Shown here: positions 1-36,678 of the stretch, in pieces
How positions within the stretch are numbered: position 1 is the stretch's first letter
Layout of the letters: every line of letters begins with the position of its first letter
Source of the DNA: Botryllus schlosseri
Lineage: Eukaryota
DNA length: 64,000 nt
Reading direction: 5' to 3'
Assembly (NCBI GenBank): GCA_051294905.1
Contig: CM119372.1
Coordinates: 18,106,001-18,170,000 of the forward strand
Program-made: the position numbers and the translations under genes
Notes under the pieces: generated by a model
What the model saw: the letters and a program-made list of their open reading frames with translations, nothing else
What the model was told of the DNA's origin: nothing
Databases searched by the model: none

Positions 1-298
1 CAGCCCCCTAATCGTAGGGCCACCACTGCATATACCTTTTCGAAGTGCACTGTATAGTTTTTGCTTAACTACTCTAATTCAATTGACTGTATTTGAAGAC
101 TTGAACGACGTGCTTTGTACATTTAGATCGAGATTCCTCCGCGTAGGAAGTAGACTAGTAGACTTTGGATAGACTTACGTCACTTCTATCAGTACAATTG
201 CTAGAAAAATTGGATATGAGTTTGAAATTGCAGCTGTGTTCTAGGGTACGCTATCAGGCATAAACACATCGTCTGGGAAGGCATATATATTTCATTAC

Positions 299-1944
299 CT
301 GCATTGTAAGGTAACTGAATTTCCAGCGGTAATCGATTCGACACCTGTCGACATCAGTAATCGGTCGCTATTTTCATCTAGATCCCAACTGCTAGCTGTC
401 GATTTTAAGGTAATCGATACTGCATCCATCCCGTATTCCGCATCCTCCCCAGTTTGCACTACACACCAATACTTTCCGATATCACCTTCGTGAAACTTGC
501 ATAAATTTTGGAAAAGATGTTCACATGAAGGCAGTGAAAACTGTATTTAAAGGGGATATATAGGCTACCCCTACCTTTTTCAGTTTCATGTCATTGTCGC
601 CAGTTCCTGTCACCACTAACCGCTTGGCAAATTGTTTATCAAACACTTTGAAATCTGCATAATGGGTTCCGTGTGAAGTGAGGGAGACGGTGTAGGAAGC
701 GATCCGCGAAGCAGACATAAGTCGTTGCCCTCTTTTCCAAGTGATAGTAACCGGATTCGTTGACTTCGGGCAAGTGGAAAATTTGCAACCTAGGTTGACA
801 GCATATCCGGGTTCGACAAGAAGCGCGTTGTTCTACAACAATACATTGGTTTCGATAACAGTTGGCAAATTGACATGCGTGGTGAATTTTTGTAGGTTAG
901 CGTAGGCTACTTGTCATAAAGCACGAGAGTCGATGCATGAGTGAGTAATGCTATGCAATACATGCTTTAATTATCGAACCACGCAGTTCGCGTTGTAGTG
1001 TGTAATTGATTGCGATCACTGATTGCGATTGCCTATTAGATGAAGTGGTCTGTAACGAAGTAGGCTACTTATTTACTTACTTATTTTTAAACTGTAGACA
1101 TCTTTAAATCAGTGGTTTCAACCTAGGGTCGTATTCGGCTTCCCAAATAGGCCGTGACCAAGGTATTCTAGTGATATCCTATTAAATTTATTTGAATTAT
1201 TCCACGTCAGCAAAAATACAAAAAAATGCGCAATTTTCATCCGTACCAAGGTTGTCATCATCATTGCAATTTTTGTACTCCGCACAAGTGCGTATACCAT
1301 CCCACAGGTTGAAAAGCACTGGTAGGCTACTTAAAATAGGGTTACCATATGTCCTCTATTAAGAGGATTTGTCCTATTTTTTTGACTTTTTTGAGAGTGT
1401 CCTCGGAGGACGCCCTTTTATCCTCTTTTTTGAGATTTTGTCCTCTTTTTTGAGAATTTTGGTGATATTTATAGCAAAATTTGACTGAGATGCCGTAAAT
1501 TAGCACCGAAATGACGGTCCGGCGGGTAGTGGAAAGTTGACCTTTTTTTTAGTCAACCACCCGACAACGTGAAGGAAAAAACTGTATTTTGGGCACCGAG
1601 CGAGAAAGTTGACCTTTTTTTATTAGTCAACCGACCACAAAGTGGGAAATTTTTTTGAGAATTCTACTCCGGTTTTGCAAGTTAGAAAATTCTGAAAAAG
1701 TGTCCACTTTTTAGATTTCCAAAATATGGTAACCCTAAATTATAATCACCTGTGTCGTGGCGGTAATGATTATCTTGTTTTCGGAAGTTTGTGGAAATAA
1801 ATTATTCTTAACCCATGACAGGCTTATTTGGTCTTCTTGAGATTTCCTTGTCACTTCCGTGAGTTCCGCTGTTTTGACTGCTATTCCACGAACGGTCCAG
1901 CATGTCCCGAAAAACAGAAGCAGGCTCAGAAATTTTGGCTTCAT
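299..1944 (-). CDS. VCBP: Secreted V-type Ig-domain protein, VCBP-like (V region-containing chitin-binding protein); 5' part only, continues toward or beyond the left edge
   Basis: Exons 1944-1750, 832-575 and 495-299 join in frame across GT..AG introns (phases 0, 0, then a phase-2 donor). Product: signal peptide MKPKFLSLLLFFGTCWTVRG, then a V domain ITATTQ|NNALLVEPGYAVNLGCKF..PVTITWKRG..FAKRLVV..DMKLKK|FHEGDIGKYWCVVQTGEDAEYGMDAVSITLK, then the start of a second Ig domain (AGNSVTLQC). The B-strand Cys, C-strand Trp and DxGxYxC are all present. The VCBP call rests on my recollection of the amphioxus VCBP3 V1 end (YWC..EFGLDAKSVVLK). No chitin-binding domain is visible in the window. Confidence 0.8.
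1110..1321. mobile_element. Short hAT-type MITE (CAGTG termini) in VCBP-like intron 1
   Basis: Imperfect TIRs cagtggtttcaacc / ggttgaaaagcactg. No clean TSD. Confidence 0.55.
1337..1737. mobile_element. TAGGGTTACCATA-family MITE (hAT-like)
   Basis: 13-bp TIRs tagggttaccata / tatggtaacccta. Homologous copies start at 20103, 24183, 40841, 57142 and 57539. Confidence 0.85.
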
Positions 1945-2118
1945 TTATCACAACAGATGCCGATATATTGGTACAGGTAATAATTAAATGTGCATATGCA
2001 TAGGTGAAGATATACTTTGGGCACCTGCAGGAATCCAATAATCACGATTTCTTTATATGGTATTCTTACTCTTTGTAAATCGCGAAATTTCTCTGCGTAA
2101 TAATGGAATGGTACCCTG

Positions 2119-3333: not shown

Positions 3334-3861
3334 CATACGTGGACAGTAACGAAATATTTCTACGTTTTTGAGATTACAAGTGGGTTTTGCTTTTACTTTC
3401 GCGTTCCTACTCAAGTGGTTGTGATTTTACACCGCTTCCACCTCTACTTGAGCAGTTCTAGGCAAAAGCACTCACTTTTTGTTATTTGCATTCTGCTAAA
3501 TAGTAAGTAGTTTTGGGATTGGTCTGTATCAGTTTTGCGTGTGAAATCGGCATAGGAACCGCGCGAAATATCCACAGTACGTGCTGGTTACATATTTCAG
3601 AAGATTTTTGTTGTCTTATCAGTCATATTGCATTTGAAATTATAGCCGCCTCCGAACAACTGTAGTATTAGAATGCGAGTTCGACTAAATCTACATTTTG
3701 AAACTACGTACTTGAGTACTTTTCAGACATTTAATTTTCTACTTCCACTTGAAGTAGTTTTGACATGTCTTGAAAATTGCTACTTGTACTTGTAGTTGAG
3801 TAGAAATCTATAGCATTCCATCTATACTTCTACTTGACTTGCAACGCTTTGACCAGTTCTG
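3334..3861 (-). mobile_element. Degenerate short copy of the CAGAGGTGGTCA MITE family
   Basis: Ends and tacttgag/ctactt subterminal repeats match the reverse complement of the copies at 23706 and 29582. Confidence 0.65.
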
Positions 3862-3944
3862 AGTCTGTGCCGCAAACCCCACGATCTGCGACTCATCGCG
3901 TCAAAAGTATGATCATATTTTCAATTCTACCTTTGCAGAATGAA

Positions 3945-6900
3945 ATGAAAAAACTTGAGATACTTTTAGGCTGTTCGGCATTGTTCTTTCTACTATTTGT
4001 TATTTATTCATCTCGCAATATTTTATCATTTCGGACTGATTCACCAAAGGAAGATAAATCCTGGCAGCAAGCCACAACAATAACGCCGTTGAAGAAAACC
4101 AAAGATGATTATCGAGCGCAAGTCGCTGACCAGAAAGGGTATGACAAATCATATCCCATATCTGCCAATATTGTACACTGTACGTACAATCGCACATGTA
4201 TATCCTTTTCGGCCACGCTGGATTTCTTATACGTTTGATGAGGTGGATATTTTTGGAAAGCAGAGTTTACACGACTTAATTACCGCGTTAGCAAAGCAAC
4301 TAAGCCAGTTTTTTCACACTGACAATGTGAATTCCTAGCAATTCTATTGGCATCCTATTGAGACAACTGATTTTCTCCAGCAACGATCCCCAGCTAGTAG
4401 AATGCATTTTTAATGTTTATCACCATACGTATATATAGGTCAAAACTATTCGAATAACTGCGACTTGATGACAGACAACCAAAAAGGGTGTATAACACAG
4501 TCTGCTAGTTTTCCAATATATATTGTCACTTTGTTTGTTAACATTTGTGTATGCCACATGGAGGTGTGTCTGAACCTATACTGGAATGTATTCAATCTAT
4601 GGGTATTTTGATACGCTTGACTGGTTTCATGCACTTGCAGGCACGTAGCCATGGTTCTAATTGACAAATACAGTATTACCAGCGCCGCAAATAGGGGTGA
4701 ATATAATTTTTGAAGTATTGTTGTTATTTTACAGACTTTAACAAAGCGGGTTACTATCCAATGCAGCTTGTCGTGCACACAACATGTGAAATAGTTTGTT
4801 ATAACTATCGAACTAATCAAGAAATCCCACCAACCACTTTTTCTGAAAGCTGGCGTCATTCTACCATGGTGCAAACTTTTATGAAAACAGCAGCAATCAA
4901 TAAAATCAAGAAATATATGAAAGTGATAGCTCATAAATGACCGCAGTCGTGATCGGTCTTGGTGTTTTGCCTTTGGAAAATTGATGTTGCACTGTTATGT
5001 AATGTGGAAAATCTATGTTACCATTTATCGTGCACGCCAAATAATTTAACGAGTCACCATAGTGGTACGCGTGCCAGTGCTTGGCTATAATGCCTACCCC
5101 TGCTATATACTGCTCCATATCACATATGTCTTACCCAACGGAGCCACATGTAGGTTTACATTACCAAGATGGCTCTGGCTAATGGTGGGATTCAAATTTT
5201 ATCATTAGACACGGTTCTATTGCCAGAAAATTGATTGACAGCAACCAGTAATGCCAACCTGTTCGCTGCTCTAATAAATTTCGTGAAACAATTCTATGGA
5301 ACCACTGAATCCGATCACTTATGACTACCGACCAAAATATCAGGGAGCATAGGCTACTCATATGATAATTGAATGTCGAAACAATTTTTCAGACATGCGA
5401 CCGGGGCGAAAACAAAATGCAAACCGCGTAAAAACATTTTCTTCATGAAAACGCACAAGACCGGAAGTACGACGATGCAAAACATCCTTTTGCGTTACGC
5501 ATGGACTCACGATTTAACGGTTGGATTGCCCCTAAAGAGCAACAACTTTGATTACGCCAACAGAAAAAAGTTCGACGGAACAATGGTGCAGCCGGTCGCC
5601 TCTGGTCGTGAGATTAACATGTTAATACATCACATGATATTTAGTAGGGCTGGGGTAAGTTTGAGGAATGTTTGGACTGTGTTGTCACTCGGATATCATG
5701 CCTGGGGTTTGTTCGGACTGTGCTCAACTTGGACAACATGGAGCGTGATTTACAATTAACTCTTCTTTTATACCAGTGGGTCTTATATCCTTTTGGACCT
5801 CGCGGCACCCTTTGAAGGGGTATACTTTAGGGCACCCTAGCAGTTCGAGTAATCAGAGTGCAATCCTGGCCTTCTCAAATGCTACTCAGATTCACAGTTT
5901 GACAATTATCCGTAAATTTTCATATATCTCGACCGCAATCCTCTTTACCTCATTGCTCACGGCAAACCTGAGCAGTCCAATCGTCAACCCAGTTGTGAAC
6001 CACTTTGTGCCGATGAGTTCACAATACAATTATTTCTTTTACGGCAAGAGAAACATATATTTACCTATTAGGCTACTTTGGGAGACAATATATATATATA
6101 TATATCACGTAAGTATAGCCCACACTGGGCTTCTTGTAAGTAAATAGAGCGGCTGCTCTCGTGCGAAAGTATTGTGACGTTCTCTTCCCAGATATCAGCT
6201 GTCCTTCCCCGCGATGCGTTCTACTTCACAGTGCTGCGTGACCCGGCTACCCAATTTGAATCAGTATATAAGTACTTTAAGACGGTCGTCGCTCCTTTTA
6301 CGAAAGCTAAATCGTTCGAAGACTTCATCGCAAATCCACCCAAGTAAATTCCGCGCAATGTGATATTATCGATTACAAAATAGAATTACTATTGCATTTT
6401 GTGACACAGGTATTTCAAAAGCACGGCGAAGCTCACATTCTCGTGGTTTGCTAAAAATGGAATGGCGTTTGACCTGGGATTCGACAATCTGAATGAAGGC
6501 GACGCTAAAATCAAGTCCATCATAAAAGAGATGGATGATACATTTGATATTGTTTTAATATCGGAATATTTCGATATGTCACTTATTTTATTGAAGGAAG
6601 GCCTTTGCTGGACCATGGCAGACATTGCCTACTTGTCAGTTAACGCCAGGAGAACATCCACTGTGCCGTTTGTCGATGGCAAACTGTCCAATAAAATTCG
6701 TAGCTGGAATAAGATTGACAGTCAGCTTTATAAATATTACAACACGACGTTTTGGAAGCGCGTTAAGAAGTTTGGTATCAAACGGATGCAAGCGGAGTTG
6801 AAGCAATTAAATAAAATCAAGAGCGAGCTCAAACTATTTTGCGTCGAAGACGGACTCTTCATCAATAAAGACATCACGGACGGGAAATATAAAATGTACA

Positions 6901-7031
6901 ACCCTCCGGGAGTGGAAATGACTCAATACCACCTAAAGAAGGAAGCGGAGAAAAACGAGACGTGCATTCAGTTAATTCTACCCGAAATACCGTGGTGGCA
7001 AAAAATGACTCAGCATCAAAGAACCGCGTAA
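3945..7031 (+). CDS. GAL3ST: Galactose-3-O-sulfotransferase (GAL3ST family, galactosylceramide sulfotransferase-like), 409 aa, 4 exons
   Basis: Exons 3945-4138, 5393-5654, 6192-6343 and 6410-7031 total 1230 nt in frame with GT..AG junctions. N-terminal type II TM anchor (LLGCSALFFLLFVIY), 5'-PSB motif FMKTHKTGSTT, 3'-PB motif LRDP..QFES, and NGMAFDLG, LVLISEYFD-like, W and LY.YYN..FW blocks typical of GAL3STs. Confidence 0.93.
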
Positions 7032-21956: not shown

Positions 21957-22140
21957 CACACCCCTGGTCTATATGTCAAGCTCGTTTGATTTCAAATCAG
22001 TGTGATTACAGCATGTATCGGCTATGCAATGGTAATTTTGAATAATAATAATAATTATAGTATATGATATATTCCTATATATTTATACGTTGTTATTCGT
22101 AGCCCTACATTTAATTGCTAACAACTACTAAAATCATCAG

Positions 22141-22932
22141 ATGGATACATCAGACGTGAAAATGCAGCCTGTCGCGGTTCAGGGTGGTACGGCAGTCGGA
22201 GTGCCTGTGCCTCCTGGAACTCAGGTAGTCTGGATGTTAAAGCCTCAAGAAATTCCGGGAGTTCCACGGGGATTGGAGTATCTTTCCGAGTTGGATCAAA
22301 TCCTAATGCATCAGCAAGTGGAACTATTCGAGGCTGTAACTGGAATCGAGACTAAAAACCGATACGCAATCAAAAACACAGTCGGCCAACAGTGCTACTT
22401 TGCATACGAAGAATCGGACCTGTGTATGCGTATTTGTTGCAAAAATCTTCGTGGATTCCAAATGCACATTGTCGACAACTTGGGCCAAGAAGTAATACAT
22501 GCATACCGGTCATTCCGATGTTGCATTGGTTGTTGCTGGTGCATTAGGGGAGATTACTGCGCCTTCACATTGAATGTGGACTCCCCGACAGGAATACCCA
22601 TCGGTAGGATAGTTCAAGAATGTTCTTCATGGAAGCCAAGATACGCCATCGAAAATGCGGAAGAAGATACCATCTTAGTTATCAGAGGTCCATGTTGTGT
22701 ATGGTCTGGAGCTTGTTGCACTTGCGATGTCTCCTTTCAGATTTTCACGCCAGACGAATCGCAATGCATCGGAGAAATAGCCCGCCAGTATTCCGGTTTC
22801 GCAAAGGAGCTCTTCACTGACGCCACAAACTTTGGCGTGACATTTCCCAAAGACCTTGATATCAAAGCAAAGGCTCTGCTCGTAGCAGCAACATTTTTGG
22901 TGGACATGATGTATTTTGAAAGGAACAATTAA
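22141..22932 (+). CDS. PLSCR: Phospholipid scramblase (PLSCR family), 263 aa, single coding exon
   Basis: PGVPRGLEYLSELDQILMHQQVELFE..ETKNRY..KN..GQ..YFA.EESD, Cys-rich CCIGCCWC, I.GPCC, the EF-hand-like motif DATNFGVTFPKDLD and C-terminal KALLVAATFLVDMMYFE are all PLSCR hallmarks. Confidence 0.96.
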   Translation: MDTSDVKMQPVAVQGGTAVGVPVPPGTQVVWMLKPQEIPGVPRGLEYLSELDQILMHQQVELFEAVTGIETKNRYAIKNTVGQQCYFAYEESDLCMRICCKNLRGFQMHIVDNLGQEVIHAYRSFRCCIGCCWCIRGDYCAFTLNVDSPTGIPIGRIVQECSSWKPRYAIENAEEDTILVIRGPCCVWSGACCTCDVSFQIFTPDESQCIGEIARQYSGFAKELFTDATNFGVTFPKDLDIKAKALLVAATFLVDMMYFERNN

Positions 22933-33629: not shown

Positions 33630-36600
33630 GTCTTTTTTTCACTGATGCCCAGCACATGGCAAGATCGTCGTAACAAAGACCGTGGACCAAACCTGTATGC
33701 AACGAACGGCACCGCTATTCCGACTCCGTGGTATGAAATCTCGCAAGATCCTACTCTCAAACGGGCACACGTATGATTTTGTATTCTACGTAGCTGATAC
33801 AAAAATTGCGATATTAGGAGCTGATTTTCTGGAGGAATTCTCTTTTGTAGTCGATATTAGAAATAACGTAATGTTGACCCAAATTAGAACACTCTCGTGA
33901 GAGGTCGGAAGAAACGTGCGTCTGTTTTCGGCCTTAACTTAGTCTCACCCCACCATAAGCAACCATATGCCGATATCTTGAAGGAATTCAAAGATTTGAC
34001 CACACCGAAGATTGCGTCCCTACGTGGTAAGCATGGCACTGTACATCGGATATTGACTACTGGCGTTCCTGTGCGTTAGCGTTGTCGCCCATTACAGCCG
34101 TATTTGAGACGCAAGGTAAGGGATCGATTGGAGGAGCTTTTAGCGTCCGGAGACATTGTCCGTTCAAAATCACCGTATTCGTCACCTATTACCGTTGTTT
34201 CTAAAGGTGAAGACGACATTAGGATTTGCGTCGATTACCGTAAGTTAAACAATCAAAGATCGCTGGCCAGTCCCCTTTTTACGAGACTTCACTAACGAAT
34301 TGCACGGTTGCAGCATATTCAGCAAGATTGATTTACAGAAGGCGTACCGTCAGATTCCTCTCCATCCCCAGGACCAAGAAAAGGCCGCGTTTATTTGCCC
34401 GGAAGGACTGTTTCAACCAACTACCATGCCGTTCGGATTGACGAATGCATGCAGCACTTTTAGCCGTTTTATCTCCGAGGTTACATCCGGAATCGAACAT
34501 ATCTTCGTGTTTTTAGATGACATTTTAATCGCCACCCGCACTGAACAGGAACATTTGACGACGCTCAGAACACTGTTTTCGAAGCTACGTGAGTTCGGTC
34601 TGGTTATTAACGTTGACAAATGCGAATTTGGTAAAGAGGAGATTGAATTCCTTGGACATTTAGTTGGCTTCGAGGGAATCCGTCCCCTGCCTGCAAAGGT
34701 CGATGTTATTGCAAATTATCCTCGCCCAGATAATGTAAAGCAACTGCGATCCTTTCTCGGCCTTGTGTGTTACTATCATCGATTTGTGAAAGACTGCGCA
34801 ACTATATTGAAGCCGCTCTACGATATCGCAAATCAATCATCCAACAAACGCAGACGTATTGTATGGTCGGACTCTGCATTATCAGCATTTGACCGCATCA
34901 AATCTGATCTCTCCGGTAATGCCTTGCTTGTCCATCCTATTCATGACTCGGACCTCTCTCTAGTCGTGGATGCAAGTGAAGTAGGCATGGGTGCAGTTCT
35001 GCAACAGCAACACAAAGGTATATGGTCACCTCTTGGGTTTTATTCAAAGACCCTTAATCGTACCCAACGAACGTATTCAGCATTCGATCGCGAGCTCTTG
35101 GGAGCGTATTCTGCTATTAAACATTTTCACGTACAATTGAAGGGCAGAAAATTTCAACTAGTCACCGATAATGATGGTCTTGTTAAAGCATTGCAGAACC
35201 CTACTGAAAGACTCGTCGCGCGTCAATCAAGACAATTAAGGTTCATCACGGAGTTTACGAGCGACGTCCGCCACATCAAGGGGTCGTTGAACACTGCAGC
35301 CGACACTCTATCAAGATTAGAAGTCAATGTGGTTTTCCCAGATACCGTACCGATTTCTGCACAGATGCTGTTTGACGCCCAGAAGAACGACGATGAATTG
35401 CGAGATCTACTGTCGAACTCCAACGAACATTCTTTGGATCTTGTGGAGGTAACAGTTGAAGGGTTGCTTGGCCCCATTATTTTCGACAGGTCAATGCCTG
35501 GCAAACATCGCCCGTTCGTGCCGCATTCTTTGCGCGACGCAGTGCTCAATGGACTTCATAATATTTCTCATCCTAGCATTCGAGCAACTACGAAACTGAT
35601 AACGGACCGGTACGTATGGCCTCATATGAAGCGGCACATAACTGAGTTTGTTCGACAGTGTCTTCCGTGTCAGCGCTCGAAGATAACCCGGCATACTCGA
35701 ACGCCAATAACCAACCTTCCAGTGCTCTCTGAACGTTTTCATACCGTAAATGTTGATATCCTTTCCTTACCTAACAGTTGCGGTTTTTCATATTTATTGA
35801 TGTGCATTGATAGATTTTCTCGTTGGCCGGAGTGTATCCCTATGTGTGATATGCGCACCCAAACTGTCATTGACGCTTTTAACCTTGGCTATATATCTAG
35901 ATTCGGCGCACCCAGGAAACTTATAACTGATCGAGGTAGCCAATTTACGTCTAGCGAATGGTCCCAACTTATGCAATTGCTCGGAATTCATCATATTACG
36001 ACTCTAGCCCGTAAACCTGAGCAAAATTCAATGGTCGAAAGATTTAATCGCACGTTAAAAGACGCGTTGCGTACAAAGGAGAGCCCGTCCGATTGGTATC
36101 ATAATTTAGGCTTAGTACTCTTGGGGTTGCGTTGTGCAATAAAAGAGGATTTAGGGTACTCGTCTTCCGAATTGACTTATGGTACTTCATTACGCTTGCC
36201 TGGTCAATTAGTTGATCCCGTTCCGTGTAGGAATAGCACCGACAATCCAACCTTCGTGAGCAATATGAGACGATTCTTTTCGGCCATTGGTCAAACCTCC
36301 ACTAATTTTCACTGTAACCCAAAGTCACACGTTCCCAATAATTTAACCACTTGCACCCACGTTTTTCTAAGGATTGACGGCTCACGCCGATCACTTGACC
36401 CCGTTTATACTGGTCCGCACAAAGTGTTGAAGCGCACTCCGAAGTGTTTTACTATCGAGACTAGTAAAGGTCCTTATGACGCCTCAACTGATCGTTTGAT
36501 TCCGGGTCGGTTGCCCTTGCAATGTTTTGAAAACTCCCAATCTAATAATGATACCGCTCAGAACGCAACCCTTCCCGAATCTCAAATTACATCGATTACG

Positions 36601-36678
36601 AATAGTGGTCGTGTTGTCAGAACACCCAGTCACTTGCAAAATTTTGTACTCGCACCAGTGTTTGAAATGCAGATTTGA
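33630..36678 (+). pseudogene. pol: Disrupted Gypsy pol (protease C-terminal half, RT, RNase H, integrase); intact 792-aa ORF 34300-36678
   Basis: Protease ILGADFL. RT SPYSSP, RICVDYRKLN, FSKIDL..AY.QI, MPFGL.NA and FLDD. RNase H VDAS..G.GAVL and DRELL. Integrase H..H..C..C, IDRFSRW, TDRGSQF and NSMVERFNRTLK, plus GPY/F-like YTGPH. Frameshifts near 33725, 33898 and 34255, and a stop at 34077-34079. Confidence 0.93.

Follow-up and report, generated by a model that had tools for sequence, protein, structure and literature searches.

The question raised by this locus is whether the minus strand near the left end of a stretch of Botryllus schlosseri DNA encodes an immune effector of the VCBP type and, if so, whether that protein carries a chitin-binding domain. 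VCBPs are a main example of V-domain immune effectors predating antibodies, and the work on them found in excerpts of the literature concerns amphioxus and Ciona only. The stretch comprises 64,000 nt of contig CM119372.1 (here C2, positions 18106001-18170000) and is referred to as the window, with positions counted from its start. The 60 kb to the left of the window was also analysed; positions in the coordinates of the piece L008 are converted to window positions by subtracting 7900.

Gene model and transcripts

The VCBP-like gene consists of six exons on the minus strand, which encode 317 aa in the form without the insertion described below (the empty-site form), and it extends leftwards beyond the window. 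The layout of the 317-aa model is a signal peptide, an extension of ~40 aa, two V domains (V1 and V2) and a 6-aa tail; its mature chain has seven cysteines, and the intron phases are 0, 0, 2, 1 and 2. An earlier note, made from the letters of the window, had assembled three minus-strand exons into a signal peptide followed by a spacer, one complete V-type Ig domain and the beginning of another. These are exons 1 to 3 of our model, which have GT..AG ends, splice in frame (phases 0, 0, 2) and are joined in spliced contigs.

The coding part of exon 1 (window 1750..1944) holds the predicted signal peptide (approximately residues 1-22) and an N-terminal extension of ~43 aa reaching into the first V1 strand. 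The extension is the spacer of the earlier note, which was right about its charged mix (5 acidic and 5 basic residues, in equal number) and short on its length (~35 aa). The 5' UTR part of exon 1 covers at least window 1945..2026, as the X1 contig starts at L008 9926 (window 2026). Exon 2 (window 575..832) encodes the part of V1 with the B-strand Cys81, the unconserved Cys86 and the C-strand Trp, while exon 3 (window 299..495) encodes the end of V1 (F-strand Cys162 and a VCBP3-like G-strand motif), the linker and the start of V2 (Cys216). Intron 3 begins in window 1..298 and the gene continues to the left, where exon 4 (C2:18104884-18104730) is spliced straight to exon 3 and supplies the remainder of the C-x-C-x-x-C motif of V2. 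Exon 5 lies in two parts on either side of an inserted element: the first (C2:18104663-18104605) encodes the V2 F strand up to Cys287 and includes the first copy of an 8-bp target sequence, and the second (C2:18103356-18103299) resumes beyond the element. The coding part of exon 6 (C2:18102765-18102726) supplies the G strand, a tail of a few residues and the stop. All of these features are on the minus strand, as is the 3' UTR, which in transcript contigs runs to C2:18102506 or beyond (at least 220 nt). No AATAAA or ATTAAA was found within 825 nt of the stop. Hydropathy of the 317-aa model peaks at the N-terminus only, the best 19-residue window past the signal peptide scoring 0.79, and no hydrophobic segment follows the signal peptide. 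With a leader peptide and no membrane segment, the VCBP-like protein is predicted from its sequence to be secreted.

Transcript evidence comes from three runs, X1, X2 and X3, of two studies, which were taken as RNA-type by guess from the run data (tissues not given) and whose contigs do skip introns. Position 1750 is joined to 832 in contigs of both X1 and X2, and ~575 to ~495 in the X2 contig, so that exons 1 to 3 are connected by spliced contigs in both RNA-type runs inspected (2/2) at the junctions expected in the earlier note. The exon 3-4 and 4-5 junctions were derived from exact contig-coordinate arithmetic and the match to a related protein, P0001 (see below). The last exon, with its stop after V2, is used by contigs of all three runs: the 533-nt GT..AG last intron is spliced in X1 and X3, and the same exon 6 is present in X2. 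The stop of X2, read by eye, is at the assembly position, and those of X1 and X3 come three codons later. In the raw reads of a further run, X10 (6% of the run read), depth over the exons is ~0 to 2, with no junction among the rows shown. Exon pieces shown differ at 8-12 positions per 198-277 nt, and alleles differ by ~3-5%. In amphioxus, VCBP2/5 are hypervariable. One X1 contig, at L008 4963-5226, continues past exon 5 into the sequence of the last intron and carries 24 differences and 11 gaps; it represents either RNA that was not spliced or DNA from another, divergent allele.

A 22-bp micro-exon (window 179..200, minus strand), suggested in the earlier note as an extension of V2, did not survive this analysis, as its junction 299/200 is absent from the transcripts examined and the segment is intron sequence. 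It has AG/GT ends, but its inclusion shifts the frame and brings a stop four codons into the next exon. The spacing in the contigs is 206 nt in X2 (expected 206 without and 228 with the micro-exon) and 405 nt in X1 (expected 405 without and 427 with it).

Several other genes and gene-like frames were seen in the window. A gene for galactose-3-O-sulfotransferase is present on the plus strand at window 3804-7031, with two exons matching Pfam PF06990 (E 1.5e-45 and 1.8e-20). This gene and the VCBP-like gene form a head-to-head pair with starts ~2 kb apart. A phospholipid scramblase (PF03803, E 1.5e-73) is encoded at window 22132-22932 (+) by a single open frame of 266 aa, and this intron-free frame could be a retrocopy. 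At window 34249-36678 (+) lies the pol frame of an LTR retrotransposon, which encodes 809 aa and includes reverse transcriptase, RNase H and integrase in a gypsy-like order. A separate search for GH6 gave two genome matches above the Pfam cut-off, which indicate a tunicate (PMC7464555); the L016 frame is 128 aa long and carries GH6-like motifs.

Kinship to VCBP3 without a chitin-binding domain

Taken singly, the exons are barely recognised by Pfam, exon 2 matching V-set at E 0.034. Against solved structures, exon 3 matches only 2 of 177,635 sequences at E ≤ 10, and both are VCBP3 (best 2FBO, E 1.3e-5). The likeness of the G-strand motif to amphioxus VCBP3, to which the earlier note had pointed, is therefore upheld by exon 3 alone. 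Exon 2 gives weak PDB matches, mostly to antibody chains (best E 0.059), and exon 4 alone gives no useful PDB match. A search of 1.84 billion protein representatives with exon 2 returned 23 matches at E ≤ 0.001, among which P0001 (319 aa) and the fragment P0004 align along the whole exon; the rest are long proteins whose scores add up from several short stretches. P0001, the best library match of exon 2 (E 6.6e-11), comes from one Logan contig. It is identical to the 317-aa model at 135 of 315 residues (43%, E 2e-85), distributed as 58/118 in V1, 56/115 in V2, 15/43 in the extension and 2/13 in the linker.

In Pfam, P0001 matches Ig families above the cut-off and no chitin domain, and in the PDB it matches VCBP3 only at E ≤ 0.001 (E 1.7e-11). 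A two-domain profile built from P0001 and three exon pieces likewise finds VCBP3 only, with both V domains of 2FBO aligned (E 3e-15). The gene thus encodes two tandem V-type Ig domains homologous to those of VCBPs, and these results support a real, VCBP3-related gene. Word-based homologue searches brought nothing beyond P0001, no Ciona VCBP was among the homologue-search matches, and the protein-cluster atlas returned generic V-set clusters only, none of them named VCBP. The earlier note had considered nectin/CTX/JAM-type proteins, which have a membrane segment and a cytoplasmic tail after their Ig domains, as the competing identity. Neither part is found in the model, and no such protein is among the PDB matches at E ≤ 0.001.

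P0001 has the same layout as the B. schlosseri protein from the signal peptide through to the short tail, shares its N-terminal extension and ends shortly after V2. Unlike the B. schlosseri protein, P0001 lacks Cys86, has its V1 C-strand Trp replaced and has a longer loop between the extra V2 cysteines. The extra cysteine after the B-strand cysteine, to which the earlier note had drawn attention, is thus present here as Cys86 but is not a family feature, because P0001 has Ser at that place. Judged by its sequence, P0001 is likely an orthologue from another species. Two structure predictions for P0001 both have a pLDDT of ~30, too low for reading the packing of V1 on V2.

Since transcripts of all three RNA-type runs stop after V2, the protein has neither a chitin-binding domain nor a membrane segment. 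The canonical VCBP, as defined in part of one source (PMC4008424), consists of a leader, two V domains and a chitin domain. The B. schlosseri protein has the leader and both V domains, and it is not a canonical VCBP because the chitin domain is absent, the stop following V2 in the assembly, in the contigs of 3/3 RNA-type runs and in P0001. The CBM14 domain that the earlier note had expected to the left of the window was not found. Its proposal of a VCBP therefore holds for the kinship, the PDB matches of the profile being all VCBP3, and fails for the chitin-binding domain. VCBP V domains without a chitin-binding domain are the arrangement of VCBP-D, and the gene probably encodes a VCBP-D-like variant of the family without a chitin anchor.

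A transposon insertion in exon 5

The element that interrupts exon 5 is 1,248 bp long (C2:18104604-18103357, equal to L002 7157-8404) and splits the exon one codon past the V2 F-strand cysteine. It is bounded by an 8-bp target duplication and has short inverted ends starting with CAG, a combination which we take to be the hAT pattern (Ac/Ds type), and no long open frame or transposase was found within it. The genome contains 77 matches to it, from 40 scored of 9,299 candidates, and the long ones are 90-99% alike. Target duplications of 8 bp were present at five of the six loci examined (this one and four of five others), one end not being recovered. Other copies of the family include L010-L014; this copy and L010 lack a stretch of ~50-60 bp near the 3' end that is present in most other copies. 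By type, we class the element as a young, non-autonomous, hAT-type transposon.

Contigs of X1, X2 and X3 cross exon 5 without the element and with one copy of the target site. Splicing does not explain its absence, as none of the nine possible registers gives a GT..AG intron able to remove it, and the animals of X1-X3 therefore carry an empty-site allele. In another run, X6, the DNA-type contigs fail to span the insertion site. Translation of the interrupted exon would continue for 27 residues inside the element and meet a stop ahead of both the G strand and the last intron; the likely outcome for the insertion allele is thus a V2 that does not fold, or a message that is degraded. On this reading of the sequence the insertion allele is likely null, and the insertion would likely hide the gene from annotation of this assembly.

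Possible function and comparison with known VCBPs

Our analysis on balance favours a six-exon gene for a predicted secreted, VCBP3-related protein with two V domains and no chitin domain, likely a free microbe-binding opsonin, whose assembled copy is split by a transposon and likely null. In the parts of the sources available, the V domains of VCBPs bind bacteria and opsonise them (PMC7947342), the domains of VCBP3 pack head-to-tail (PMC7916673, PMC12051499), and recombinant VCBP-C without its chitin domain induces biofilm more weakly (PMC4757023). The weaker biofilm induction suggests that a natural V1-V2 protein would likely work as an opsonin that is free in the lumen of the gut or in the blood. 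By analogy with the Ciona and amphioxus VCBPs, the protein would be secreted by gut epithelium or blood cells. Its V1 may pack head-to-tail on V2, aided by a putative extra Cys218-Cys221 disulfide in V2, and its V domains would bind bacteria that phagocytes then take up, as in known VCBPs. Lacking a chitin domain, it would have no hold on the chitin mesh of the gut and would diffuse in the lumen or blood. One guess for the conserved extension at the N-terminus is a propeptide or an oligomerisation helix.

It is also conceivable, if unlikely, that the protein derives from a VCBP and is secreted for a non-immune task, such as gut patterning, mucus or tunic structure, with the extension giving it a new partner. 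Excerpts of the literature report that part of VCBP-C activity needs the chitin domain (PMC4757023), that VCBP messages delineate territories of the gut before feeding starts (PMC4008424) and that a VCBP is present in the tunic proteome (PMC7401272). The extension is also conserved in P0001 (15 of 43 residues), and the mature chain exceeds the V1-V2 part of VCBP-C (residues 22-280) by ~36 aa. However, the same body of excerpts assigns bacterial binding and opsonisation to the V domains, and both of these domains are intact in the present protein.

Less probable still is a decaying VCBP remnant, which has lost its chitin domain and accumulates null alleles under weak selection. The coding insertion in the assembled copy, the three-codon variation in stop position between alleles and the very low read depth in X10 would fit such a gene. 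However, the empty-site form keeps an open frame of 317 aa that is spliced in three runs, and it is 43% identical over its full length to P0001, with the same two ends. Moreover, the V domains are far more conserved than the linker (58/118 and 56/115 against 2/13 identical residues), which is the pattern of purifying selection. The chitin-free form is conserved in what are likely two species, and this layout therefore points to a maintained gene and not to a one-off truncation.

It is highly improbable that the gene is a canonical VCBP whose V2 is spliced, in minor or tissue-restricted messages, to a chitin-binding exon far away or to some other C-terminal module. Contigs can drop rare forms, and for amphioxus VCBP3 both alternative exons for the chitin domain and messages with V1-V2 only are described (in part of PMC2632668), but the stop exon is in all three RNA-type contigs, P0001 stops after V2 too, no loose end at the exon 5 donor is seen among 24 of the 27 rows listed, and none of the 42 CBM14 matches in the genome (from 49 candidates) falls on C2 between 5.30 and 26.13 Mb. 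Downstream, 0 of 16 open frames match Pfam; one of the candidate exons proved to be a repeat, of which 40 copies were scored, and the last candidate has its 3' end inside a repeat.

Whether the free V1-V2 protein stands alone in this animal was approached by several searches, and no second VCBP was found with exon, P0001, motif or profile searches, which have little power to detect V domains that are divergent and split among exons. With exon 2, exon 3 or P0001 as the query, the genome gave this locus only, apart from one signal-peptide match at E 0.41. A degenerate form of the G-strand motif gave 5 genome matches against 3 for its reversed control, and only this locus matches the two-sequence profile. 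No V domain lies beside CBM14 in 14 stretches (5,430 frames) at 10 of the 42 CBM14 sites. These negatives are weak because the present gene itself escaped the Pfam V-set search of the genome (16 matches of 107 candidates) and only 10/42 CBM14 sites were inspected. Two side observations were made. At L037 ~1430-1530 (C3:18425900, +), a short frame resembles Ig E-F strands, has no cysteine and does not match the VCBP profile; it may be an exon for a V domain that has no disulfide. At L026-L030 (C9:18.72-18.78 Mb), three tandem genes end in CBM14, and by motif the L030 frame presumably resembles a GH18 chitinase.

A wider scenario, which we regard as rather doubtful, is that the lineage has lost all chitin-tethered VCBPs and retained a single two-V protein that has no tether and carries a conserved pro-segment at its N-terminus, and that the gene for this protein segregates a transposon null allele. 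If true, it would provide a natural knock-out separating microbe recognition by V domains from chitin anchoring. Gut immunity would work here without a chitin tether if this is the only VCBP of the animal, and the insertion allele would allow animals with and without the protein to be compared.

Among known systems, amphioxus VCBP3 (Branchiostoma floridae; 2FBO, 1XT5) has in common with the B. schlosseri protein two tandem, alignable V domains (E 3e-15), the F-G motif of V1 and the C-x-C-x-x-C after the V2 B-strand cysteine (also in 2FBO); the available excerpts describe its V domains too as divided among several exons. In contrast to VCBP3, the B. schlosseri protein has no chitin-binding domain, carries an N-terminal extension and has a lone extra cysteine in V1. 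The exons of amphioxus VCBPs are all in phase 0, whereas the phases here are 0, 0, 2, 1 and 2, and haplotype-specific mobile-element inserts are known from amphioxus VCBP loci (both from part of PMC2632668, where Ciona VCBPs are described as VCBP3-related). Ciona VCBP-A, -B and -C share the leader and two V domains but, in the excerpts available, end in a chitin-binding domain, which in VCBP-C tethers the protein and its bound bacteria to chitin. Ciona VCBP-D, named as lacking the chitin domain in one sentence of a review seen in part (PMC7947342), shares this absence, a likeness by description alone and not by sequence. No description of the present gene was found in excerpts of the literature on ascidian, Botryllus and Styela VCBPs. 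A VCBP without a chitin domain is, by the same excerpts, already known from Ciona VCBP-D and the V1-V2-only messages of amphioxus. What is new here is the conserved extension, the chitin-free layout in both the B. schlosseri genome and the source of P0001, and the coding insertion allele.
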